Virus record (IMG/VR): IMGVR_UViG_2693429623_000020
Source: a virus
Lineage: Duplodnaviria > Heunggongvirae > Uroviricota > Caudoviricetes
Direction: 5' to 3' (one strand)
Length of the DNA: 9,840 bases
The position numbers and the translations under genes were made by a program. Every line of letters starts with the position of its first letter. Positions within the stretch are counted from its first letter, which is position 1. The notes beneath the pieces are model-generated. The model saw only the letters and a list, made by a program, of their open reading frames with translations. It was not told the DNA's origin and did no database searches. Shown here piece after piece: positions 1 through 9,840 of the stretch.

Positions 1-1239
1 ATGAGCAGCGCAATTCATAGACTTAGCGACACTCTTTTACGAAAATTAAGCGGATCACCAACCACAAAAAACGCCTTTTTTAATGACGGTGGCAATCTTA
101 GCGTAAGACATTCCACCAGCGGCCTGTTAACCTGGTATTTCACTTACAGGGCCGGAACTGGCAGGCAGGTATCACCGGAACGCCTGAGACTGGGCAACTA
201 TCCCGATCTGAGCCTGAAAGCAGCCAGGGAAAAAGCGGCACAGTGTCGCGCCTGGCTGGCGGAGGGGAAAAATCCACGCCATGAGCTTAATCACACAGTG
301 CAGGAAGCGTTAGCCCCTGTGACGGTTAAGGACGCGCTCACTTACTGGCTTGAGTCGTATGCGAAGGAAAAGCGCACTGACCACGAATCACTGAAAAGCC
401 GTATCAATAAGCACATAATCAGCCAGATTGGTGCTATGCCGCTGGATAAATGCGAGCTACGCCACTGGCTGGCCTGTTTTGACCAGCTTGCTAAGCGTAA
501 TCCGGTATCAGCCGGCTTTTTGTTGCAGGTATGCAAACAGGCGCTTAAGTACTGCCGTAAACGTCGCTACGCCGTCAGTAACGTTCTTGATGATATGGTC
601 GTAGGTGATGTGGGAAAAAAAGCAGAAATAAGCGAGCGAGTGCTAACAAACAAGGAGCTTGGCGAGCTACTCCGCGCACTGGATGAAAAAATTTTCCCGC
701 CGTACTACAGCGCTTTAATTCGCCTTCTGATTGTCTTCGGATGCCGCACCACTGAGCTAAGACGCTCCGAGGTTCGGGAATGGGATTTTAAAGAAATGCT
801 CTGGACTGTGCCGAAAGAACACAGCAAAACGAAGGTAGCAATATTCAGGCCAATACCGGAAGCGATCTTGCCGTTCGTCATGAAGCTGGTGGAGCAGAAC
901 AGGCACACGGGCTTATTGCTTGGAGAACTGAAAGGGCAATCATCCGTAGCAGAGTACGGAAGAACGGCACACAGACGCATTAATCAAACCCCCTGGTCGT
1001 TGCACGACATCCGGCACACATTTACAACCATGCTGAACGATTTAGGCGTGGATCCGCATATTGTCGAACAGCTTACTGCCCACCAGATGCCAGGAATGCA
1101 ACGCGTCTATAACCACTCCCGTTATCTCGATGCAAAGCGTGACGCTCTTAATCTATGGGTAGACCGTCTCGAGCTTCTCCAGAACAATGATGAAAAAATC
1201 GTTGTTATGACCCCGCGAATTTACCCCCAAAATTCTTGA
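1..1239 (+). CDS. int: Tyrosine recombinase / site-specific integrase, P4-type (412 aa)
   Basis: N-terminus LSDT..K.....DGGNL.....SG...W.F.YR fits the P4-type integrase N-terminal domain; C-terminal region has HDIRHTF and RVYNHSRY consistent with the His/Arg/Tyr catalytic residues. ATG at position 1, stop at 1237-1239. Confidence 0.9.
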   Translation: MSSAIHRLSDTLLRKLSGSPTTKNAFFNDGGNLSVRHSTSGLLTWYFTYRAGTGRQVSPERLRLGNYPDLSLKAAREKAAQCRAWLAEGKNPRHELNHTVQEALAPVTVKDALTYWLESYAKEKRTDHESLKSRINKHIISQIGAMPLDKCELRHWLACFDQLAKRNPVSAGFLLQVCKQALKYCRKRRYAVSNVLDDMVVGDVGKKAEISERVLTNKELGELLRALDEKIFPPYYSALIRLLIVFGCRTTELRRSEVREWDFKEMLWTVPKEHSKTKVAIFRPIPEAILPFVMKLVEQNRHTGLLLGELKGQSSVAEYGRTAHRRINQTPWSLHDIRHTFTTMLNDLGVDPHIVEQLTAHQMPGMQRVYNHSRYLDAKRDALNLWVDRLELLQNNDEKIVVMTPRIYPQNS

Positions 1240-1245
1240 CAAATT

Positions 1246-1317
1246 ACGGCTGTTTTTTCTTTAAGAGATTACAGCCGTGAATAAATCGTAGAATATCGGA
1301 AAATATCTGCAAATATC
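1246..1317. promoter_or_regulatory. int-alpA intergenic regulatory cluster: 8-bp inverted repeat ACGGCTGT/ACAGCCGT (1246-1253 / 1271-1278) plus three AATATC direct repeats at 10-bp phasing (1292-1297, 1302-1307, 1312-1317)
   Basis: Repeats read directly from the sequence. The 10-bp spacing puts the repeats on one face of the helix, typical of recombination-directionality or regulator binding sites. No protein assignment is possible. Confidence 0.35.
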
Positions 1318-1656
1318 TTCGCTTTATATATGTCAACCATCAAAAAATTGGAATGTCTTCTTCTGAACTTTTATTCTCTGTTTCTTGATTGTTCCAACAC
1401 CTGATGGTTTATCTATTTGTTTTTAATGAGATAATTCAAGCGTAATGCCAAATAACGACATTTTTTGTTGCATCGATTAAAAACTCGTGACACGATTTTA
1501 AACACTAACGAGCTTCTACGAACCTTAGCGAACAAAGCCTTTAGCATGGTTGTGTTTTTAATTTAATAGGTGAAAAAGAATCTAAGTAATATCCGATCTC
1601 ATATATCTACAGCTAAGAGAAAAGTTTATATACGTAATTTTTATGTAGGTTTTTGT

Positions 1657-1866
1657 ATGCGTGAAATAAATGAAGATCGCGTAATCCGTGAGGATGAATG
1701 TCGTAAGTTAACTGGAGTGTGTCGCACTACACGCTACGAACTGGAGAAAAAAGGGAGCTTTCCGTCTCGCCGTAATCTTGGTGGGCGTTCTGTAGGTTGG
1801 CTGCTGTCCGAGGTTATGGAATGGGTTAAAAGCCGGGATCGCATTAATTCAGGTAAGGCAGCGTAA
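1657..1866 (+). CDS. alpA: AlpA-family phage regulatory protein (excisionase-like HTH), 69 aa
   Basis: Translation MREINEDRVIREDECRKLTGVCRTTRYELEKKGSFPSRRNLGGRSVGWLLSEVMEWVKSR follows the AlpA pattern (TG..R.T.Y......FP....LG.+SVGW...E...W). Start chosen at the internal ATG 1657 (AGG 7 nt upstream) rather than the ORF-track start 1570. Confidence 0.8.
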   Translation: MREINEDRVIREDECRKLTGVCRTTRYELEKKGSFPSRRNLGGRSVGWLLSEVMEWVKSRDRINSGKAA

Positions 1867-1883
1867 AGGGGAGCATATGACAT

Positions 1884-1913
1884 ATAAAACAAAGGCGACC
1901 GGGGGCGGTCGCC
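1884..1913 (-). terminator. Rho-independent terminator for the minus-strand operon
   Basis: Hairpin GGCGACCG-GGGG-CGGTCGCC (1894-1913); on the minus strand it is followed by TTTGTTTTAT. No U-run on the + strand. Confidence 0.55.
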
Positions 1914-1980
1914 AATGGATACACACTAAACTTGAACGCATCACCAACAATGCCACATTTGCGGCTGGTGGGCAATGTGA

Positions 1981-2160
1981 TCAGTCAGATTTGGTTCGTT
2001 CCAAGGTTTGCAACGAGAGCTTTTTCCTGTGCTCTTTAAGGAATTTCTCAAGAGCAAACGAACAAGGTGCGAATCTTTCTGATTCATGTTCATGCGCTAT
2101 ATTTTTGCGTCGTCTCTTACGAGTTGGTGATGGTGTTTTGGTTGATTCTGTGTCGCTCAT
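1981..2160 (-). CDS. Small basic hypothetical protein (59 aa), second gene of the divergent operon
   Basis: Minus-strand ORF below the ORF-track size cutoff, hand-translated as MSDTESTKTPSPTRKRRRKNIAHEHESERFAPCSFALEKFLKEHRKKLSLQTLERTKSD. AGGA lies 8-11 nt upstream of the ATG at 2160. It sits between the RHH gene and the minus-strand terminator. Confidence 0.4.
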   Translation of the reverse strand: MSDTESTKTPSPTRKRRRKNIAHEHESERFAPCSFALEKFLKEHRKKLSLQTLERTKSD

Positions 2161-2217
2161 GGTGCTGTCCTGTAAAGCAATGCGCCTGCGTTCCTCAAAC
2201 TATGGCGCTGATAGTGG

Positions 2218-2523
2218 CTATTCCTGCTCTTTGACCTTGCGTCGCTGGAGTTCTTCACGCGCGACGGTGACGAGTTGCCCGATCTCCTCGGCGGCTTTGA
2301 CTCCGATTTTTTCCACCTGCGCTAGGGCATCGAGCGAAGAAACCAGGAGGTTTTCTCCGCTTCCTTCTGCCTGGCGGCGGGCGATTTCACCGCGCATGGC
2401 GGTTACTATGAATCCGGCGTTGCTTTCACCGTCCAGTTTTACGGATTCCATGCCTTCAATAACATCATGCGGGATCCGAGCTGTCAGTGATTGTGATTTT
2501 GCGTTTTTTGAACCTGTAGCCAT
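2218..2523 (-). CDS. Ribbon-helix-helix (CopG/Arc/MetJ-like) putative transcriptional regulator, 101 aa
   Basis: N-terminal segment SLTARIPHDVIEGMESVKLDGESNAGFIVTAMRGEIARRQ has the strand-helix-helix pattern of RHH DNA-binding domains, followed by a charged helical tail. Start placed at the ATG at 2523 (GAGAGGA RBS 7 nt upstream) instead of the ORF-track start 2538. Divergent from the rightward genes. Confidence 0.6.
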   Translation of the reverse strand: MATGSKNAKSQSLTARIPHDVIEGMESVKLDGESNAGFIVTAMRGEIARRQAEGSGENLLVSSLDALAQVEKIGVKAAEEIGQLVTVAREELQRRKVKEQE

Positions 2524-2544
2524 CTGTAATCCTCTCAATGAAAG

Positions 2545-2621
2545 TGTAAGACAATATACACATAAAAAGTCTTACATAAAAGCATTGACATGTAAGCCAC
2601 CTATAAATAAAGTTACTTACA
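2545..2621. promoter_or_regulatory. Divergent promoter/operator region with four TGTAAG half-sites in two inverted pairs
   Basis: TGTAAG at 2545-2550 and 2591-2596; CTTACA at 2571-2576 and 2616-2621. TTGACA (2585-2590) and a -10-like TAAAGT (2608-2613) at 17-bp spacing lie between them. Sits between the divergent RHH gene and the rightward Icd-like gene. Confidence 0.45.
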
Positions 2622-2719
2622 CCTTGTTAATGCAAGGTGCAGAAACGACGAAACCCCGCACTGTAGGAGCAGTAACGGGGCTTCTAACCACCAACGATAG
2701 CAAGATTATCGAGGCAGCT

Positions 2720-2923
2720 ATGAGAAATCATACCATACACCCGCAAGGGCGGGACTCGTACAACCTGAATAAATACATCTGGCGTTTTATCGCCCTGAGC
2801 ACCGCACAACCGCGCGTGATTCACATCGTGGCCACCAGCGAACAGGAAGCACGCCAGCAATCCCCGGCTGGCTGCGTGATGGTATTCGCCGCCCGTATTC
2901 GTCAGGGGGTGTGCCATGCCTGA
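2720..2923 (+). CDS. Small protein resembling the host cell division inhibitor Icd-like family (67 aa)
   Basis: Only the 3' end of the 348-aa ORF-track entry is taken as coding, starting at the ATG at 2720 (GAGG 5 nt upstream). The pattern YIWRFIAL...ATSEQEARQQ....VMVFAARI resembles Icd-like small proteins of enterobacterial satellite prophages as I recall them; not verified by search. Confidence 0.45.
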   Translation: MRNHTIHPQGRDSYNLNKYIWRFIALSTAQPRVIHIVATSEQEARQQSPAGCVMVFAARIRQGVCHA

Positions 2924-3236
2924 TATGTCAAATTACCAGTACCTGATTAATCCGCATTTTAACTGTGAGCATGATATTGCTAAAAAGGTTTATTCCGCTG
3001 CGGATGGGGCTACTGACAATATATCAATGGCTGTTGCGTCAATTGGTAGCCTGATGTGGCATGCGTCAGAAAATGAGGACTATGACGAAAAGGCCATGCG
3101 CATTGATATGGGTAATATCGGTTTGTTACTGGCAATGCTTGGACATTTTGATATTTCGTTACGGTGCACCATTGAAAATGCCACAGATGCATTAAATGCT
3201 ATAAAGAAAGCGAATACTGATTCAAATCGGGGATAA
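2916..3236 (+). CDS. Hypothetical protein (106 aa)
   Basis: ORF with AGGGGG RBS; overlaps the preceding stop by 8 nt (translational coupling). No recognisable motif. Confidence 0.55.
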   Translation: MPDMSNYQYLINPHFNCEHDIAKKVYSAADGATDNISMAVASIGSLMWHASENEDYDEKAMRIDMGNIGLLLAMLGHFDISLRCTIENATDALNAIKKANTDSNRG

Positions 3237-3242
3237 ATAATC

Positions 3243-3542
3243 ATGAGAACGTATTTATCTGGCTTGACTGCCAGCGGTTATGCACACCCCCAAATTATCC
3301 CCGGCGCTATTTATCTTGATAAGAACGGTAACAGAGTAACGGTAAAAGAACTGATGTTTGACCGTGTGTATTTTATTCGTGATGGCTATTCATTTCATAG
3401 TTCGCTGAACGTGGAGATCTTTATTAGCAGATTCAGGCGGGAAATCCCGCTTTCCAGAAATAACCATGTGTCACGTGTGGATGTGGATAAAAAACTACAG
3501 GAACTGAAAAACATGATTGCCGCGTGGAGAGAGCAGAAATGA
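3243..3542 (+). CDS. Hypothetical protein (99 aa), translationally coupled to the replication gene
   Basis: ORF whose stop overlaps the start of the next gene (ATGA at 3539-3542). No recognisable motif. Confidence 0.55.
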   Translation: MRTYLSGLTASGYAHPQIIPGAIYLDKNGNRVTVKELMFDRVYFIRDGYSFHSSLNVEIFISRFRREIPLSRNNHVSRVDVDKKLQELKNMIAAWREQK

Positions 3543-5356
3543 AAAAAGCGCCAAATTTAAAACACCAGCCGCGTGACAAAATGACGGAAGTCATCATTTT
3601 TGCGGGTAGTGATGCGTGGGCACATGCGAAACAGTGGCAGGAACAGGACGGGCGACTGGCTGGCGATAACGTGCCACCTGTCTGGCTTGGAGAGCAACAA
3701 CTTGTCGAACTGGACAACCTGCAAATCGTACCGGACGGACGCTATCGCGTGCGTCTCTATCAGGCGGGGTTATTGCGTCCGGGGCTTGTTAATACCATCG
3801 GGCAGAAACTGGCAGAGGCAGGTGTCAGGGATGCTGATTATTACCCTGAAGGAATGCACAGCCAGAAACGGGAGAACTGGCGTGAATATCTGGAACGTGA
3901 ACGGGCAGAGCTGGCGGAAAAGAAAAAGGTAGTTGAACTGCCTGTAAAGAAAAAAGAGCGGGTAAAAGACGATAACGCTTCATCACTGGCGCTTAACCAG
4001 ATGGGAGCAAGTCAACGCGGCGAAGTTCTCCTGGCACATTATGGCGGTGAACTGGCGATTCATGCTGACTCTGACACTGTTCACCATTACAACGGCATTG
4101 TATGGGAGCCAGTACAGGATAAAGAATTACAGCGAGCTATGGCGCAGATTTTCATTGATGCGGAGATCAGCTATTCGCAGAACGCCATTAAATCGGCGGT
4201 CGATACCATGAAGTTAAGTTTGCCTGTTATGGGGAATACAGCCCGTAACCTGATTGGATTCAGTAACGGGGTATTTGATACCAGAACAGGTAATTTTCGG
4301 GAGCATAACAAAAACGACTGGTTGTTAATTGCCAGTGAATTACCTTTCAGCCCACCAGCAGAGGGGGAAACGCTGGCAACACATGCGCCGAATTTCTGGA
4401 AGTGGTTACGCCGTTCGGTGGCTGAGAATGACCGCAAGGCGGATCGCGTACTGGCTGCATTATTCATGGTGCTGGCGAACCGGTACGACTGGCAGTTATT
4501 CATTGAGGTAACAGGTCCAGGGGGAAGTGGTAAAAGCGTGATGGCGGAGATTTGCACCATGCTGGCGGGTAAGGCCAACACAGTATCGGCAAGCATGAAG
4601 GCGCTGGAAGATGCAAGGGAACGCGCGTTAGTGGTTGGCTTTTCGCTGATTATCATGCCGGATATGACCCGCTACGCTGGTGATGGGGCAGGAATTAAGG
4701 CCATTACAGGCGGTGACAAGGTGGCAATTGACCCGAAACACAAAGCCCCCTACTCAACGCGTATTCCGGCAGTAGTGCTGGCGGTTAACAATAACGCCAT
4801 GTCATTCAGTGACCGCAGCGGGGGGATCTCACGTCGTCGGGTGATATTCAATTTTTCGGAAGTTGTACCGGAGAACGAACGCGATTCAATGCTGGCGGAA
4901 AAAATAGAAGGTGAGCTGGCGGTAGTGATTCGTCATCTGCTTACACGGTTTGCTGACCAGGACGAAGCCAGACGCCTTTTATATGAGCAGCAGAAATCAG
5001 AAGAAGCACTCGCGATAAAGCGTGAAGGTGATTCGCTGGTGGACTTCTGCGGCTATCTCATGGCGTCGGTAATGTGTGATGGCCTGTTAGTGGGTAATGC
5101 TGAAATTGTGCCATTCAGCCCGCGCAGGTATCTCTATCATGCCTATCTGGCTTATATGAAGGCACATGGGTTTGGTAAACCTGTAACACTGACGCGCTTC
5201 GGTAAAGATATGCCGGGGGCAATGGCGGAATATGGCAGGGAGTATATGAAACGGAAAACGAAGCACGGTTTGCGTTCAAACGTGACACTGACGGAGGAAT
5301 CAGAAGACTGGATGCCATCATGTGTATCGGTCACTAATGACGATAGCAAAAATTAA
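3539..5356 (+). CDS. Replication initiator, P4-alpha-like C-terminal region (D5_N-like plus SF3 helicase P-loop NTPase), 605 aa
   Basis: Walker A motif EVTGPGGSGKS; the surrounding NGVFD..TG...EH and FW.WL.R context is typical of the phage/plasmid primase P4-family C-terminal domain. Start set at the ATG at 3539 (ATGA overlap, GGAGAG RBS) rather than the track start 3524. A canonical primase domain is not obvious in the N-terminal 250 aa. Confidence 0.85.
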   Translation: MKKAPNLKHQPRDKMTEVIIFAGSDAWAHAKQWQEQDGRLAGDNVPPVWLGEQQLVELDNLQIVPDGRYRVRLYQAGLLRPGLVNTIGQKLAEAGVRDADYYPEGMHSQKRENWREYLERERAELAEKKKVVELPVKKKERVKDDNASSLALNQMGASQRGEVLLAHYGGELAIHADSDTVHHYNGIVWEPVQDKELQRAMAQIFIDAEISYSQNAIKSAVDTMKLSLPVMGNTARNLIGFSNGVFDTRTGNFREHNKNDWLLIASELPFSPPAEGETLATHAPNFWKWLRRSVAENDRKADRVLAALFMVLANRYDWQLFIEVTGPGGSGKSVMAEICTMLAGKANTVSASMKALEDARERALVVGFSLIIMPDMTRYAGDGAGIKAITGGDKVAIDPKHKAPYSTRIPAVVLAVNNNAMSFSDRSGGISRRRVIFNFSEVVPENERDSMLAEKIEGELAVVIRHLLTRFADQDEARRLLYEQQKSEEALAIKREGDSLVDFCGYLMASVMCDGLLVGNAEIVPFSPRRYLYHAYLAYMKAHGFGKPVTLTRFGKDMPGAMAEYGREYMKRKTKHGLRSNVTLTEESEDWMPSCVSVTNDDSKN

Positions 5357-5369
5357 ACTTATGGAATAA

Positions 5370-5592
5370 CTGTTCACCACTGTTCACCCTGTCATAAATA
5401 TCTTTTGTATCAGTATGTTATAGGGTGAACAGTTATTTATGAACTGTTCACCAAACTATTCACTGTTCACCTTTTTGATTGTTTATTGAGCTTCAAGGGT
5501 GAACAGTGGTGAACAGTTGGTGAATAGTTTTTGTGAAACTGTTCACCCCTTAACATTATGAATTAAAAGATAAAATATCAAAAGGTGAACAG
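5370..5592. repeat. Replication origin: at least nine 9-bp iterons CTGTTCACC / GGTGAACAG in both orientations in an AT-rich background
   Basis: CTGTTCACC at 5370, 5380, 5444, 5463, 5539; GGTGAACAG at 5424, 5498, 5508, 5584; degenerate copies near 5454 and 5518. The core TGTTCACC is the type I iteron bound by P4 alpha (from memory). Located directly after the alpha-like gene. Confidence 0.8.
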
Positions 5593-5643
5593 GTGAAGGG
5601 TTAAAACGCAAAAATTTTAATTTACTGCTGTGAGATAAAGCCT

Positions 5644-5889
5644 ATGACAGCGAAGCACACAAAAAAATCACAATCGCACGCCCTTGATTTGACGGAACAC
5701 TGGTTAAGGGTGTCGATAAAAATCATCGACCGCAACGCCGGGGAAGGATATGCGAAAGCACATCCCGAACTGATTAGCTCATTCATGACAACGGCAGCTG
5801 CAAACTTTGCCACGCTGACAGAACGGGAGATTGCCGAAGCGGAACAGGTGACAACCATCAACGTTAAAACCGGAGAGCAGACAGCATGA
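5644..5889 (+). CDS. Hypothetical protein (81 aa)
   Basis: ORF whose stop overlaps the start of the SSB-like gene (ATGA at 5886-5889). Weak RBS; no recognisable motif. Confidence 0.45.
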   Translation: MTAKHTKKSQSHALDLTEHWLRVSIKIIDRNAGEGYAKAHPELISSFMTTAAANFATLTEREIAEAEQVTTINVKTGEQTA

Positions 5890-6269
5890 CAGCACAGATA
5901 GCGGCTTACGGGCGGCTGGTGGCTGACCCGCAGTTAAAGACCACCAGCAAGGGTACACAAATGACGATGGCGAGTATGGCGGTCCCACTTCCGTGCAGCC
6001 AGGCAGATGACGGAACGGCGACGATGTGGTTATCCGTCCTGGCGTTTGGCAGACAGGCCGAAGCACTGGCAAAGCACCGCAAGGGCGAACTCCTGAGCGT
6101 GGCGGGTAACATGCAGGTGAGCCAGTGGACCGGACAGAACGGGGAGACGCGGCAGGGCTGGCAGGTTATCGCAGACAGCGTAATCAGTGCGAGAACGGCG
6201 CGACCGGGCGGCAAAAAAGGCCAACAGGCGGGAAATGATGATCCGTACGGGGATAACATACCGTTTTAA
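5886..6269 (+). CDS. ssb: Single-stranded DNA-binding protein-like (OB fold with SSB-type acidic C-terminal tip), 127 aa
   Basis: Ends in DDPYGDNIPF (E. coli SSB ends DDDIPF). The core pattern G.L..DP...W..V..FG..AE.....KG....V.G.......W....G..R matches the SSB OB fold. Confidence 0.65.
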   Translation: MTAQIAAYGRLVADPQLKTTSKGTQMTMASMAVPLPCSQADDGTATMWLSVLAFGRQAEALAKHRKGELLSVAGNMQVSQWTGQNGETRQGWQVIADSVISARTARPGGKKGQQAGNDDPYGDNIPF

Positions 6270-6284
6270 GCAACGAGTAACAGA

Positions 6285-6307
6285 AGCCGGAGCAATCCGG
6301 CTTTTTT
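6285..6307 (+). terminator. Rho-independent terminator after the SSB-like gene
   Basis: Hairpin AGCCGGA-GCAA-TCCGGCT followed by TTTTTT. Confidence 0.7.
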
Positions 6308-6309
6308 AT

Positions 6310-6381
6310 GGGTCCTCCCGGTGTAGTGACCTGCCACGGGGCGGGAGCGTCGCGGAAAAAGGCTGGTTTTTGCATTTTCAT
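6310..6381 (+). other. cos-like element, copy A (lambda cosQ-cosN-like), upstream of the capsid module
   Basis: GGGTCCTCCCGGTG...CCACG GGGCGGGAGCGT CGCGG...TTTTCAT. Lambda's right end/left end junction as I recall it is TTTACGGGTCCTTTCCGGTG...GTTACG | GGGCGGCGACCT | CGCGGGTTTTCGC. 66/72 identical to copy B. Putative 12-nt cohesive end at 6339-6350. Confidence 0.55.
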
Positions 6382-6427
6382 GGCGGCGGCAGCATGTGTA
6401 GTAATTTATTGATAATTAAAAGTTATT

Positions 6428-6525
6428 TCTGTTTTCACCTGTACAATATTTTTTTCTCCCTGTCATTAGACCAGTTTGCAATTAATTGAAATATATAAAT
6501 AAATCTGTTTTTCACCTGCCAGGTG
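6428..6525. promoter_or_regulatory. Capsid-operon leader motifs: two CTGTTTT(T)CACCTG iteron-like repeats and a 13-bp palindrome CACCTGCCAGGTG
   Basis: TCTGTTTTCACCTG at 6428-6441 and TCTGTTTTTCACCTG at 6504-6518; palindrome at 6513-6525. The motifs resemble the ori iteron CTGTTCACC with a T-insertion. Confidence 0.35.
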
Positions 6526-6568
6526 GAGTTGCCTGTGTCAAAACGTGTTCAGATGGCGGGATATTTAT

Positions 6569-6591
6569 GCCGGATTTTATCCGGCTTTTTT
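6569..6591 (+). terminator. Intrinsic terminator-like hairpin inside the capsid-operon leader
   Basis: GCCGGA-TTTTA-TCCGGC followed by TTTTTT; about 100 bp upstream of the capsid-operon start. Confidence 0.5.
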
Positions 6592-6693
6592 GTGTCTGAA
6601 TCTCATTAATCTATTTTTATGATAGAAATATGTTTATCTACCACTTTTATCGATCAATAATGTGCACAGTTTAGTCAGTAAGAGGAAGTTACT

Positions 6694-6900
6694 GTGAGTT
6701 GTATTAATGACCTGAACACGGGCGATATCAGGGGTGGTTCCGTTCATCTGGATGCGCAGACCGTTATGCGCCTTAAGCAGTACAGGATCGACCATATAAA
6801 TCATCATCCTGACAAACCATTACCAGGTGTGGCGCAGATTGTCAGACATGCCGTAAACACCTGGCTTAATCAGAATGGTTTTGCATCGGTGGGGGAATAA
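6694..6900 (+). CDS. Small RHH-like putative DNA-binding protein (68 aa), first gene of the capsid operon
   Basis: GTG start with AGAGGAAG RBS. SVHLDAQTVMRLKQY...VAQIVRHAVNTWLNQ fits a strand-helix-helix pattern. Its stop overlaps the start of the capsid gene (TAATG). Confidence 0.5.
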   Translation: MSCINDLNTGDIRGGSVHLDAQTVMRLKQYRIDHINHHPDKPLPGVAQIVRHAVNTWLNQNGFASVGE

Positions 6901-8813
6901 TGAATCGCTGGTACACCATTAAGGCGGCGGATGTTCGTGGAGCGGCGGATATATCTATCTATGAGGAGATTGGCGGCTTCGGTGTTACTGCAAAGCAGTT
7001 CGCGGAAGACCTGAAAGCCCTTGGCGATGTTTCACATATCAATCTGAGGATCCATTCACCAGGTGGTGATGTGTTTGAAGGCATCGCCATCTATAACCTG
7101 CTACGGAATCATCCGGCAGACATTACGGTTTATATCGATGGTGTTGCGGCTTCAATGGCTTCGGTGGTCGCAATGGCTGGCGATCGTGTAGTGATGCCGG
7201 AGAACGCCATGATGATGATCCATAAACCGTGGGGGATCTCTGGCGGAAATGCTGGCGATATGCGTGATTATGCTGATTTGCTGGATAAGGTGGAAACCGT
7301 GTTAATCCCTGCTTATGCCAGAAAAACGGGCAAATCAGCACAGGAAATTACCGCCATGCTGGAGGATGAAACCTGGATGGATGGGAAAGAATGCCTTAAG
7401 CACGGTTTTGCTGATGAATTGTTGCCATCCGTCAGAGCAATGGCGCGAATTGAATCGAAACGCACAGGAGATTTTTTACATATGCCGGAAACCATTAAAG
7501 GAATGATTACACCGCCACAGGGAGCGGCAAATATTGCTGGTAATGAACAGAAGCGCATCAATGGAATAAGTGAAGTGTTTAGCCTGTTCGGCAGTCGTTA
7601 CGACGGGATCAAAATGGCGTGTCTGGAAGATGCATCATGTACACCGGAAATGGCCCGTGAAAAGCTGTTGAACGAGCTGGGGCGCGAGTCCACGCCATCC
7701 AATAAAAATACCCCGCCTCATATCTATGCTGGAAACGGAAACATAACAGGTGATGCAATTCGTCAGGGGCTTTATTCCCGTCTTGGGTATGAACGGCCTG
7801 AACGAGGCAACCCTTACGCGATGATGAGTCTTTTTGAAATGGCCCAGGCATCACTGGTTGATCGTGGTATCACTGTGAGCGGTTTTATTAATCGCTCGCA
7901 GGTTGTTAATGCGGCTTTTACACACAGCAGCAGTGATTTTTCTCATATTCTGGCTGGTGGGGCTGAAAAATCTGTACTGAAAGGCTGGCAGGACAGCGGC
8001 GAAACGTTCCAGAAATGGACGCGTACCGGTTCGCTTTCAAACTTTCATGAAGCAAAGCGCGTTGGTCTGAATGGTTTTTCAAAGCTGGATAAAGTACCGG
8101 AAGGTGCGGAATATAAATACATCACCACCAGCGATAAAGGTGTACCTATTGCGCTGGCCACGTACGGGAATATATTTTCCGTTACCCGTCAGGCCATTAT
8201 CAACGATGACCTGACCCAGTTAACTACAATCCCCATGGCGATGGGACGCGCAGCTGCCAGAACAGTTGGCAATCTGGTTTATCTCCTGTTAACCAGCAAC
8301 GGCAAGTTTACGGATGGTAAAGCGTTATTCCATGCCGATCATAAAAATCTTATTGCGAAGGATATGGACATGGAGGGGCTTAACGAAGCCCGTAAGCTGA
8401 TGCGCCTCCAGGAAGACGCTAACGGCGATTCGCTGAATATTACCCCTGCATTTGTCCTGGTCCCCGCCGCGCTGGAGTCTGCCGCACATCGCGCCATTCT
8501 GTCATCGTCATCACTCTTTCCGGTTGATGGCGTGGGCACTATCAATCAGAACCCCGGCATCATTAACGTGGTGAAAGATATGGCGGAGGTAATCGTTGAG
8601 CCACGTCTTGATAAAGCCAATAACAAGGAGTGGTATGTGGCAGCGGCGAAGGGTATGGACACGATAGAGGTCGCTTATCTTGATGGTATTGATACGCCAT
8701 ATCTTGAGGAGCAGGAGGGCTTTACTGTTGATGGCGTCGCCTGGAAGGTGCGCATAGATGCAGGTGTAGCGGCCCTCGACTATCGCGGATTACTGAAATC
8801 GAGTGGAGCATGA
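6900..8813 (+). CDS. ClpP-like (S14) prohead protease fused to an HK97-fold major capsid protein (637 aa)
   Basis: N-terminal about 190 aa contain DGVAASMASVVAMAG and MMIHKPWGISGG, matching the ClpP active-site Ser and His motifs (GQAASMGAF / MIHQPLGG). The C-terminal 350 aa (..TIEVAYLDG..FTVDGVAWKVRIDAGVAALDYRG) resemble HK97-like major capsid proteins. GGGGGAA RBS. Confidence 0.85.
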   Translation: MNRWYTIKAADVRGAADISIYEEIGGFGVTAKQFAEDLKALGDVSHINLRIHSPGGDVFEGIAIYNLLRNHPADITVYIDGVAASMASVVAMAGDRVVMPENAMMMIHKPWGISGGNAGDMRDYADLLDKVETVLIPAYARKTGKSAQEITAMLEDETWMDGKECLKHGFADELLPSVRAMARIESKRTGDFLHMPETIKGMITPPQGAANIAGNEQKRINGISEVFSLFGSRYDGIKMACLEDASCTPEMAREKLLNELGRESTPSNKNTPPHIYAGNGNITGDAIRQGLYSRLGYERPERGNPYAMMSLFEMAQASLVDRGITVSGFINRSQVVNAAFTHSSSDFSHILAGGAEKSVLKGWQDSGETFQKWTRTGSLSNFHEAKRVGLNGFSKLDKVPEGAEYKYITTSDKGVPIALATYGNIFSVTRQAIINDDLTQLTTIPMAMGRAAARTVGNLVYLLLTSNGKFTDGKALFHADHKNLIAKDMDMEGLNEARKLMRLQEDANGDSLNITPAFVLVPAALESAAHRAILSSSSLFPVDGVGTINQNPGIINVVKDMAEVIVEPRLDKANNKEWYVAAAKGMDTIEVAYLDGIDTPYLEEQEGFTVDGVAWKVRIDAGVAALDYRGLLKSSGA

Positions 8814-8820
8814 CAACAAG

Positions 8821-8843
8821 GGCGGCGATAGCCGCCTTTTTTT
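8821..8843 (+). terminator. Rho-independent terminator after the capsid gene
   Basis: Hairpin GGCGGC-GATA-GCCGCC followed by TTTTTTT. Confidence 0.7.
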
Positions 8844-8845
8844 AC

Positions 8846-8917
8846 GGGTCCTCCCGGTGGGGTGGTCTGCCACGGGGCGGGAGCGGCGCGGAAAAAGGCT
8901 AGTTTTTGCATTTTCAT
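8846..8917 (+). other. cos-like element, copy B (lambda cosQ-cosN-like), about 150 bp upstream of the Nu1-like terminase gene
   Basis: TTTACGGGTCCTCCCGGTG...CCACG GGGCGGGAGCGG CGCGG...TTTTCAT. Same arrangement as lambda, where cos precedes Nu1. Putative 12-nt cohesive end at 8875-8886. Confidence 0.6.
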
Positions 8918-9070
8918 TCGTCATCATCATCTTCATATTGTATTGAATTTTAAGTATTTTTATTTTTGGTATGTTAATTTTGCTTGTTTTATGCTCAACA
9001 TATAGCGCATTTTTTGACCTCTTCTGAAAGTTGTTCGCAAGATGCATGTTTAAAACATTCTGGAGCGGGT

Positions 9071-9556
9071 ATGGATCGAGAACTGAAAAATCTGATGCTG
9101 AACATTAATCAACTGGCGGCGATAGCGGGAATATGTCGTCAGACTGCGGCGGCAAGGCTGAAAAACATCCAGCCAGCCGGAGGGCATGACAAGCTGAAAC
9201 TCTATCGGGTGACTGACATTCTGACCTGTTTTCTTGATCTTCCCGTTCCGGCATCACTGGAAGAAATGGAGCCACATGACCGTAAGGCCTGGTATCAGTC
9301 CGAACGTGAACGCCTCAAGTTCGAACAGGAAACGGCGCAACTCATACCCGCCGATGATGTGCGAAAAGAGATGGCTATATGGGGAGAAATCGTAAGCGAG
9401 GAACTGGCAAAACTCCCCAATATTCTGGCACGTGATGCCGGGCTTAAACCGATGGCAGTAAACAGAGTGCAGTCAATTATTGACGATTTGTGTAATCAGA
9501 TTATCAGCCGGATGGTAAAAAATGACGTAGTGAATGAGGTCGCAAAACAGGCATGA
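9071..9556 (+). CDS. Terminase small subunit-like protein (lambda Nu1-like N-terminal winged HTH), 161 aa
   Basis: Start at the internal ATG 9071 (GGAG 5 nt upstream). LNINQLAAIAGICRQTAAARLKNIQPAGGHDKLKLYRVTDILTCF parallels Nu1 VNKKQLADIFGASIRTIQNWQEQGMPVLRGGGKGNEVLYDSAAVIKWY, and it sits just downstream of a cos-like site. It could instead be a packaging-redirection factor (Rpp-like). Confidence 0.6.
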   Translation: MDRELKNLMLNINQLAAIAGICRQTAAARLKNIQPAGGHDKLKLYRVTDILTCFLDLPVPASLEEMEPHDRKAWYQSERERLKFEQETAQLIPADDVRKEMAIWGEIVSEELAKLPNILARDAGLKPMAVNRVQSIIDDLCNQIISRMVKNDVVNEVAKQA

Positions 9557-9840
9557 TAATGACCGAATCTGAAATACTGCGATTAATCCGCTGTGCTGGT
9601 GGAATTAGCCAGTTGGCTGACGAACAGGCCGCGCAGCCAGATACAGTCACCGCTGAAAATTACGCGCGTGTGGTGGCTGAGGTGATGCGCCGTGACGGTA
9701 TTGAGCTTAACGGCGTGGATATGCGCAACATACGAACCAGAGTCCTTGAGTTGCTGGCATACCGTCACCGTTCTCAACAACGGAGGGAGAGCGCGAAAAA
9801 TACTTATCAGTGGAAGAAGCCGGAATGGTTGCGGCGGTAA
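9553..9840 (+). CDS. Hypothetical protein (95 aa), translationally coupled to the terminase-like gene
   Basis: ATGA overlap at 9553-9556; stop at the last base of the window. No recognisable motif. Occupies the position where a large terminase would follow Nu1 in lambda. Confidence 0.5.
   Translation: MIMTESEILRLIRCAGGISQLADEQAAQPDTVTAENYARVVAEVMRRDGIELNGVDMRNIRTRVLELLAYRHRSQQRRESAKNTYQWKKPEWLRR

Follow-up and report, generated by a model that had tools for sequence, protein, structure and literature searches.

What kind of element joins a P4-type integrase and replicase to lambda-type packaging signals and a capsid gene of its own? This question is raised by a stretch of 9,840 nucleotides (nt), referred to here as the window, which is recorded as viral DNA (Caudoviricetes; IMG/VR record IMGVR_UViG_2693429623_000020) and runs from the start codon of an integrase gene to the stop codon of its last open reading frame (ORF). 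A sequence-only reading had placed it between P4-like satellites, phage-inducible chromosomal islands (PICIs) and capsid-forming PICIs (cf-PICIs), possibly as a new family. Most probably, the window contains all the genes of a 10.6 kb Gram-negative PICI, which would work as a helper-dependent satellite in the manner proposed below. By gene content and nucleotide identity, this island is a classical Gram-negative PICI, already catalogued and ordinary as an element, and not an undescribed intermediate. It has the anatomy of these islands, with an alpha-type replicon, a complete cos site of helper type and a hybrid small terminase (TerS), and, apart from a gene fusing a prohead protease to a major capsid protein, it contains no other virion gene.

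Identity and Boundaries of the Island

Of 5426 complete Escherichia coli genomes, 52 carry the whole window with about 98% identity. In E. coli A1_181 (L001; L-numbers denote the E. coli genome, prophage or phage loci compared), identity is 98.0% over the full window, and the island sits between cspD/yljB and clpS, with clpS and clpA following it. It is flanked there by direct repeats of ATGATAGTTAT at positions 14817 and 25416, 10,599 bp apart (island 14817-25426), and this attachment (att) core at cspD-clpS is the site published for EcCIIHE3034. The window thus falls short of the island ends by about 184 bp on the left (attL side) and 535 bp on the right. Extension of the context in this genome, which the sequence-only reading had suggested, therefore yielded the att repeats and no downstream tail or lysis genes; past the window there is nothing phage-like, neither a large terminase gene (terL) nor a portal gene, and the element ends after 535 bp with clpS next. 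Both the earlier remark that no large terminase or portal is visible and the view of a helper-dependent satellite, as opposed to a prophage, are in agreement with these boundaries. Among the window ORFs themselves, no terL, portal, head-tail connector, HNH, tail or lysis gene was found by Pfam, PHROG or RefSeq comparison. Chromosomal genes directly follow the terminal ORF in the flanks of L001, L013, L014 and L018-L030, and these chromosomal flanks in all copies examined exclude both a prophage and a cf-PICI.

The sequence features that characterise Gram-negative PICIs are all present. The integrase gene lies at the left end and transcription is rightward, only the YlcI gene being on the minus strand; an AlpA regulator, a pri-rep gene followed by an iteron origin, a capsid homologue, and a TerS with a helper-type cos are encoded; and the 10,599 bp between repeats and the PICI-specific att site correspond in size and location. 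The "type A" PICIs of SatelliteFinder, 97% of which occur in E. coli, are defined by int, alpA, pri-rep, capsid and terS, and 21 of the 29 reference Gram-negative PICIs carry a major-capsid gene. Taking into account that the combination of int/alpA/pri-rep with capsid and terS is the published definition of enterobacterial PICIs, the idea of a position between families fails. It has to be noted that the sequence-only reading had named database matches to a known satellite family as what would overturn it, and such matches exist: the island is near-identical to EcCI224 and EcCIIHE3034. According to Table S1 of Fillol-Salom et al. 2018, cspD-clpS is the site of both EcCIIHE3034 and EcCI18098, with ATGATAGTTAT as core, and frmR-thiM is that of EcCI224. 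On these alignments the island is a recombinant, in which an int/alpA end of EcCIIHE3034 type is joined to a remainder of EcCI224 type.

The late module is not confined to this arrangement. It is present in 187 of the 5426 complete E. coli genomes, and it is paired with four replicase types (D5-like, DUF927, RepA and DUF5906) when L001 and L012-L014 are compared. The exact TerS protein occurs in 6375 collection blocks, and all eight of the places shown are islands of about 10 kb with the order int...pri-rep...fusion...TerS...orf93. Three att sites are represented among these eight places and two more come from L012 and L013, giving at least five.

The cos Site and the Hybrid Small Terminase

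Coordinates here and below are those of the window, and features lie on the plus strand unless otherwise stated. A cosQ (GGGTCCT) and a cosN-like site, CACG/GGGCGGGAGCGG, in which the slash marks a nick placed by analogy with lambda, occupy positions 8844-8907 and are identical to mEp460 at 64 of 65 positions. The cosQ core lies 29 nt before CACG/GGGCGG (30 in lambda), and the start of terS is 196 nt downstream (190 in lambda). Packaging signals of lambda type had been proposed from the sequence, and the layout of cosQ, cosN and terS upholds that proposal; the true relatives are lambdoids of the mEp460/cdtI/Gifsy type, and the lambda cohesive-end 12-mer, GGGCGGCGACCT, is absent from the window, where four matches with 3 mismatches represent the chance level.

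Downstream of cosN, a predicted cosB-equivalent, the TerS-binding region (8908-9070), is 99% identical to prophages L008 and L010 and 50-77% identical to other alleles. It is followed by the gene for a DUF1441 hybrid small terminase (9071-9556; phrog_141 terS, E=6.7e-57), whose N-terminal winged helix-turn-helix module is shared with the helper. Alignment of this protein with its counterparts in PhiR40_1, Ayreon and mEp460 gives 65-71% identity. Its description as Nu1-like holds at the level of distant homology, by weak reciprocal profile matches (phrog_57, the Nu1 family, E=5e-7; lambda Nu1 against phrog_141, E=5.6e-8), while a direct BLASTP comparison with lambda Nu1 gave nothing.

The mosaic structure of this region becomes evident when segments are compared separately; the identities that follow are at the nucleotide level, among five PICIs and four phages. 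From 8844 to 9293, covering cosQ, cosN, cosB and TerS codons 1-74, the window is identical to prophage L008 (TerS P0014) at 448 of 450 positions. The identity begins exactly at cosQ, drops to 87% over 9294-9353, and is about 60% in the 3' half of terS. The cosQ-cosN segment is 84-100% identical across all PICI and phage copies compared. By contrast, cosB varies together with the DNA-binding domain, the two forming cassettes that occur on either side of the boundary between PICIs and phages: the window matches L008/L010 at 99-100%, and a second such match joins PICI L026 to phage L028 at 98-99%, with other pairs at 50-84%, except for two PICI copies of the window's own allele at 88-97%. From codon 97 to the end of terS, the grouping follows the type of element, with 95-99% identity between PICIs, 99-100% between phages, and 61-63% between PICIs and phages. 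In all PICI copies, the acidic tail of phage TerS, DDEEELQQEE, is replaced by KNDVVNEVAKQA.

Against mEp460, the cosB region diverges despite the 64/65 match at cosQ-cosN, and from mEp460 alone an island-specific cosB, distinct from that of the helper, had been considered. This candidate fell once the prophage tract of 99.6% identity was found, and the cassette model took its place. As for mEp460 itself, its terS (L003, the mEp460 record, 1-519) is annotated from a point upstream of the conserved ATG, which reads ACG, and tblastn matches begin at residue 5 only; the deposited start codon or frame looks doubtful.

In Nu1, the N-terminal domain binds DNA, a central region mediates self-association, and gpA is bound by the C-terminal region. 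Following this layout, the satellite-specific C-terminal half of the island TerS presumably comprises the part for oligomerisation and contact with the large terminase (TerL).

The same mosaic could be read in another way, in which the DUF1441 protein is not an autonomous TerS and acts as a modulator similar to the Rpp proteins, mixing with the helper TerS by way of the DNA-binding domain that they share and blocking or redirecting packaging, so that the island would need the helper TerS. That need would account for a cassette which stays identical to that of a helper. The two independent exact matches of cosB/DNA-binding alleles between PICI and prophage are compatible with it, as is a satellite C-terminus that differs from that of phages and is without the acidic tail, and RppA and RppC are a precedent for TerS-derived proteins in sister PICIs. 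Nevertheless, we consider this explanation rather unlikely: the protein has no sequence similarity to RppA (BLASTP) or to PDB entries containing RppC (phmmer), it aligns collinearly with phage TerS over the full length, the conserved middle region included, and the sharing of cassettes would also be expected from neutral gene conversion.

The Capsid Fusion Gene

The protease-capsid fusion noted from the sequence was confirmed as a single ORF at 6900-8813, encoding a protein of 637 amino acids (aa) with a ClpP-like prohead protease (CLP_protease, E=1.6e-35), a linker-scaffold and an HK97-type major capsid domain (Phage_capsid_4, E=1.7e-53). Residues 42-176 match ClpP structures in the PDB, and the ClpP-type motifs GVAASMAS (S85), MIHKP (H108) and DETWM (D156) are kept. 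The protein aligns collinearly with the mEp460/prophage protein, at 57% identity, and the same value is obtained against mEp043, mEp213, VT1-Sakai and several Shiga toxin 2 (Stx2) phages. This identity is unevenly distributed, the protease part being about 70% identical to that of phages and the capsid domain about 55%, with a linker 29 aa shorter, and residues 252-291 forming a stretch 85% identical to the phage protein. Among PICI copies of the gene, the ratio of nonsynonymous to synonymous substitution rates (dN/dS) is 0.06-0.16 at dS 0.23-0.35, with no stop codons. As far as its codons indicate, the fusion gene is an intact, selectively maintained and diverged copy of the single gene with which the helper builds its shell. 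Its product is probably a capsid-morphogenesis or interference factor, which might change capsid size or disturb assembly.

A 90-bp patch at 7652-7741 (aa 251-281), at the junction of linker and capsid and encoding AREKLLNELGRESTPSNKNTPPHIYAGNGN, is 91-94% identical in nucleotides to prophage fusion genes in many genomes. Maturation cleavage, contact with the scaffold or the anchoring of recombination could each be its function.

It might be proposed that this gene makes the island a semi-capsid-forming satellite, intermediate between classical PICIs and cf-PICIs, which would build its own small shells on the helper portal by means of the polyprotein, the C-terminus of its TerS coupling the helper TerL. 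One gene does contain protease, linker and capsid, collinear with the only shell gene of the helper; it is full-length, retains the catalytic motifs and is under strong purifying selection; and the main differences from the helper are precisely the 29-aa shorter linker and the capsid domain of about 55% identity. The Ccm protein of SaPIbov5, a satellite capsid homologue that changes head size, sets a precedent. However, portal, terL and head-tail genes are missing, so membership of the cf-PICIs fails; the capsid homologue of EcCICFT073 has no detectable role and its packaged DNA is phage-sized; and four copies of the island (42.4 kb) fit a full helper head. We therefore hold a semi-capsid-forming satellite to be unlikely. 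Improbable too is its minimal formulation, a capsid-redirecting satellite of just two genes, in which the polyprotein would join, or wholly make up, shells of satellite size on the helper portal, the C-terminal half of TerS would give the island preferential access to the helper TerL, and the cassette, exchanged with resident prophages, would match whichever mEp460- or Stx-type helper is present; if true, two-gene capsid redirection would place the island functionally between classical PICIs and cf-PICIs.

Four island copies amount to 42.4 kb, within the 42-45 kb of candidate helper genomes, and, since 4 x 10.6 kb is approximately one helper genome, the packaging of tetramers in full-size heads is equally possible and would need no size redirection. 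Such packaging is what was seen for EcCICFT073, where 4 x 11.4 kb is likewise comparable to lambda.

The Replication Module

Pri-Rep, the replicase, is encoded at 3524-5356, with a likely start at 3539, and combines a PICI-type N-domain with D5_N, DUF5906 (superfamily 3 helicase) and Pox_D5 ori-binding domains. With residues 320-771 of P4 alpha, where the helicase and ori-binding functions lie, it shares 50.4% identity, and with the EcCICFT073 and EcCIIHE3034 alleles 48%; nothing in it corresponds to the primase N-domain of alpha (residues 1-320). Directly 3' of the gene lies the replication origin (5371-5591), an AT-rich block of iterons in both orientations, composed of nine exact copies of TGTTCACC and one TATTCACC variant. 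The window contains ten exact copies of TGTTCACC, nine of them in this block; if one mismatch is tolerated, the count rises to 20, where 7.8 would be expected, and none of 200 shuffles reached it. The octamer is that annotated in P4 as the "ori type 1 repeat" (ori/crr). In PICIs the origin is placed directly after pri-rep (PMC6092414), a rule that the window iterons follow.

An orf81 encoding a conserved hypothetical protein (5644-5889; phrog_1231) and ssb, for a single-stranded DNA-binding protein (5886-6269; PF00436, E=6e-16), come next. This orf81-ssb segment (5666-6221) is polymorphic in its presence, and, as it is missing from EcCI224, L020 and L023, ssb appears dispensable for the island. 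A terminator-like hairpin with a T run (6569-6595) separates the replication and late modules.

The P4-like features listed by the sequence-only reading, namely a P4-family int, alpA, an alpha-like replicase and iterons, were all recovered by Pfam, BLASTP and pattern counts. They could indicate a P4-like satellite with a swapped hijacking module, given that Pri-Rep is 50% identical to its part of alpha, that both elements have one and the same ori octamer, and that a P4-family integrase is accompanied by an alpA related to Vis. This explanation is very improbable, and membership of the P4-like satellites fails: no sid, psu, delta or epsilon homologues were detected with Pfam or PHROG, the 19-nt cos of P2/P4 gave 0 matches with up to 3 mismatches, no CI (C4) RNA was found with Rfam, the alpha primase N-domain is missing, and the gene order is that of PICIs. 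In Gram-negative PICIs, distant homology to P4 is confined to AlpA, Pri-Rep and Int (Fillol-Salom 2018). A decaying lambdoid prophage remnant, which the phage descent of capsid, TerS and cos might suggest, is hardly credible in view of the intact att repeats, the compact 10 kb architecture at all loci examined, with at least five att sites and four replicase types, the intact ORFs under purifying selection, and flanking genes that are satellite-specific, with no tail or lysis fragments.

Predicted Helper Phages and a Proposed Model for Packaging

In phages of the mEp460/PhiR40_1/Stx type, the order is cos-TerS(DUF1441)-TerL(GpA)-gpW-portal-fusion-decoration-tails, and the fusion is the only major capsid gene. 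On this comparison, the relatives of the late module are lambdoids of the mEp460/cdtI/Gifsy type rather than lambda, and the predicted helpers would belong to the same group, some members of which convert their hosts to Stx production.

The mechanism proposed for the island, as a helper-dependent PICI, is as follows. By analogy with EcCICFT073, a helper lambdoid would turn on alpA, and Int would excise the island. Pri-Rep would fire the TGTTCACC-iteron origin directly 3' of its gene, leading to concatemers. The helper would supply TerL, portal, head-completion proteins and tails, and its TerL would cut at the cosN/cosQ common to the group. The island TerS would bind the co-inherited cosB and recruit the helper TerL whatever the cosB allele of the helper, and it would compete with the TerS of a mismatched helper. 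In this scheme any helper with this type of head module could be exploited, and cosB and the DNA-binding domain would form a specificity cassette, swapped with resident prophages. We infer the steps of excision, replication, concatemer formation and packaging by analogy with characterised elements.

Several points weigh against this proposal. Some prophages carry a cosB and DNA-binding domain identical to those of the island, and with such an identical cassette TerS cannot tell island DNA from the DNA of these helpers. The TerS mosaic could be a product of neutral gene conversion between the anchors cosQ-cosN and codons 66-96, and not of selection. Binding of TerL by the satellite C-terminus, which is without the acidic phage tail, is a prediction drawn from Nu1. 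As regards the fusion gene, what is observed is its conservation, and its capsid role is putative. Finally, no paper was found on the late-module type of this island.

If the predicted helpers are right, interference with, or transfer by, phages of a group that includes Stx-converting members would be clinically relevant. The TerS mosaic provides a directly testable hypothesis on how cos-packaged PICIs track helper specificity, and the fusion gene bears on what the widely conserved capsid genes of PICIs do.

Integration, Regulation and Accessory Genes

The int gene (1-1239) encodes a P4-family tyrosine integrase (Pfam Arm-DNA-bind_3 and Phage_integrase), 95% identical in aa to EcCIIHE3034 Int and 23.6% to P4 Int. 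Tandem repeats of GGTGTAGTTAATGGTGTAGTTAATTTT and repeats of TTGTTCG are found inside both island ends, close to the window on either side of it (L001 14955-14980 and 25322-25347), and are probably integrase arm sites; the 2018 table gives the same sequence as the "att core" of EcCIDI14.

The alpA gene (1657-1866; PF05930, E=4.8e-16; phrog_2790) encodes the PICI activator, a regulator of excisionase type, which has been shown to be the inducer in EcCICFT073 (PMC6092414). Next comes the sole minus-strand gene, of the YlcI/YnfO family (2218-2523; RefSeq name in L001; phrog_6522, E=1.5e-57), and then, on the plus strand, a gene for an Icd-like small protein (2720-2923; RefSeq name; phrog_6196), upstream of which a promoter scan placed a promoter-like site, TTGACA-17-TAAAGT, at 2585-2613. 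A 348-aa plus-strand ORF at 1877-2923 was rejected as spurious: it runs across the YlcI gene of the opposite strand and the divergent promoter region, and only the final 67 codons (2720-2923) belong to a gene, the icd-like one.

A conserved PICI early gene (2916-3236; phrog_15327, E=2e-71), also present in L001, L014 and L017, precedes that of a 99-aa DUF4222 protein of the RgdR family (3243-3542; PF13973). The RgdR family comprises regulators of the locus of enterocyte effacement and of motility, and an RGD at residues 20-22 has been reported for the RgdR orthologue C1493. The 99-aa DUF4222 protein of CFT073, inferred to be C1493, has RGD at residues 20-22; the window protein is 34% identical to it and has PGA at that place. 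Taking both facts into account, the window protein may not share the regulatory activity.

The genes of phage descent are bracketed by two small ORFs, orf68 and orf95. On the 5' side, orf68 (6694-6900; phrog_4934), a satellite-specific ORF of 68 aa, shares 1 nt with the start of the fusion gene; it had no match in 50,697 phage records, and in EcCICFT073 and EcCIIHE3034 its place is taken by an ORF of equal size that is not homologous to it. Annotation differs between records, RefSeq giving in several genomes a 57-aa minus-strand ORF at 6634-6807 instead; the 68-aa plus-strand ORF is favoured by the calls of other gene finders and by what lies at the analogous place in EcCICFT073 and EcCIIHE3034. 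The capsid gene ends in a Rho-independent terminator-like hairpin, GGGCGGCGATAGCCGCC, followed by T7 (8815-8842). Between the fusion gene and cos, L020 (9118-9690) and L023 (9088-9690) have an extra Lambda_tail_I ORF of 190-200 aa, absent from the window; a further match, H13, is likewise annotated as "tail assembly protein", and these islands are otherwise identical.

The terminal gene, orf95 (9553-9840; phrog_1561), encodes 93-95 aa, with a likely start at 9559, and its start overlaps the stop of terS. Its identity to the ORFs that close EcCICFT073 and EcCIIHE3034 is 72-76%; it is common to PICIs with all three packaging-module types, and is essentially absent from the 50,697 phage records. 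Its interpretation as an N-terminal remnant of TerL was discarded, as it has no similarity to the TerL of mEp460, PhiR40_1 or lambda. The window contains no tRNA and no Rfam family at E<=0.1 save one chance match to a long non-coding RNA, and PADLOC found no defence system among the small ORFs.

Comparison with Known Systems

P4 shares with the island an alpha-type helicase/ori-binding domain (50%), the TGTTCACC iteron, the integrase family and a regulator of AlpA/Vis type, whereas its sid, psu, delta, epsilon, CI RNA, P2 cos and alpha primase domain have no place in it. The cf-PICIs of EcCIEDL933 type resemble the island in the int-alpA-rep left half and in encoding their own capsid and protease, but within about 15 kb they also encode portal, head-tail connectors, HNH and TerL, none of which the island has. 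The lambdoids of mEp460/cdtI/Gifsy type (such as PhiR40_1 and the L008 prophage), with which the TerS and fusion families are shared, are the source of the late module; unlike the island, they are whole phages, equipped with genes for TerL, portal, decoration, tail and lysis.

Among PICIs, EcCICFT073 is identical in architecture, and its conserved terminal ORF is 72% identical. It is in this island that AlpA induction, the Pri-Rep/ori replicon and cos packaging by lambdoid helpers have been studied experimentally. It differs in having RppA, which binds the helper TerS, in place of TerS, in its non-homologous capsid and decoration genes, which resemble lambda gpE and gpD, and in its helpers, lambda and phi80. 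EcCIIHE3034 and EcCI18098 share with the window the att site, with the core ATGATAGTTAT, and the gene order, and window positions 1-2248 are 91.5% identical in nucleotides to EcCIIHE3034. The latter, which prophages resident in its host failed to mobilise in the 2018 study, has a late module of lambda type (gpE-like capsid, gpD-like decoration and Nu1-type TerS) and no TGTTCACC iterons. Neither the fusion protein nor the TerS of the window has BLAST similarity to the late proteins of EcCICFT073 or EcCIIHE3034.

The closest relative over most of the length is EcCI224, from E. coli Ecol_224 (CP018948.1:1961620-1972242), one of the reference PICIs tabulated by Fillol-Salom et al. 2018 (Table S1), catalogued and never experimentally tested. 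It has another integrase, alpA and att site (frmR-thiM), and is without orf81 and ssb (window 5666-6221). In the remainder, window positions 1674-5665 and 6222-9840, both islands are 98.6-98.9% identical in nucleotides, and they share the YlcI, icd-like, DUF4222 and pri-rep genes, the fusion gene, cos, DUF1441 and the terminal genes.

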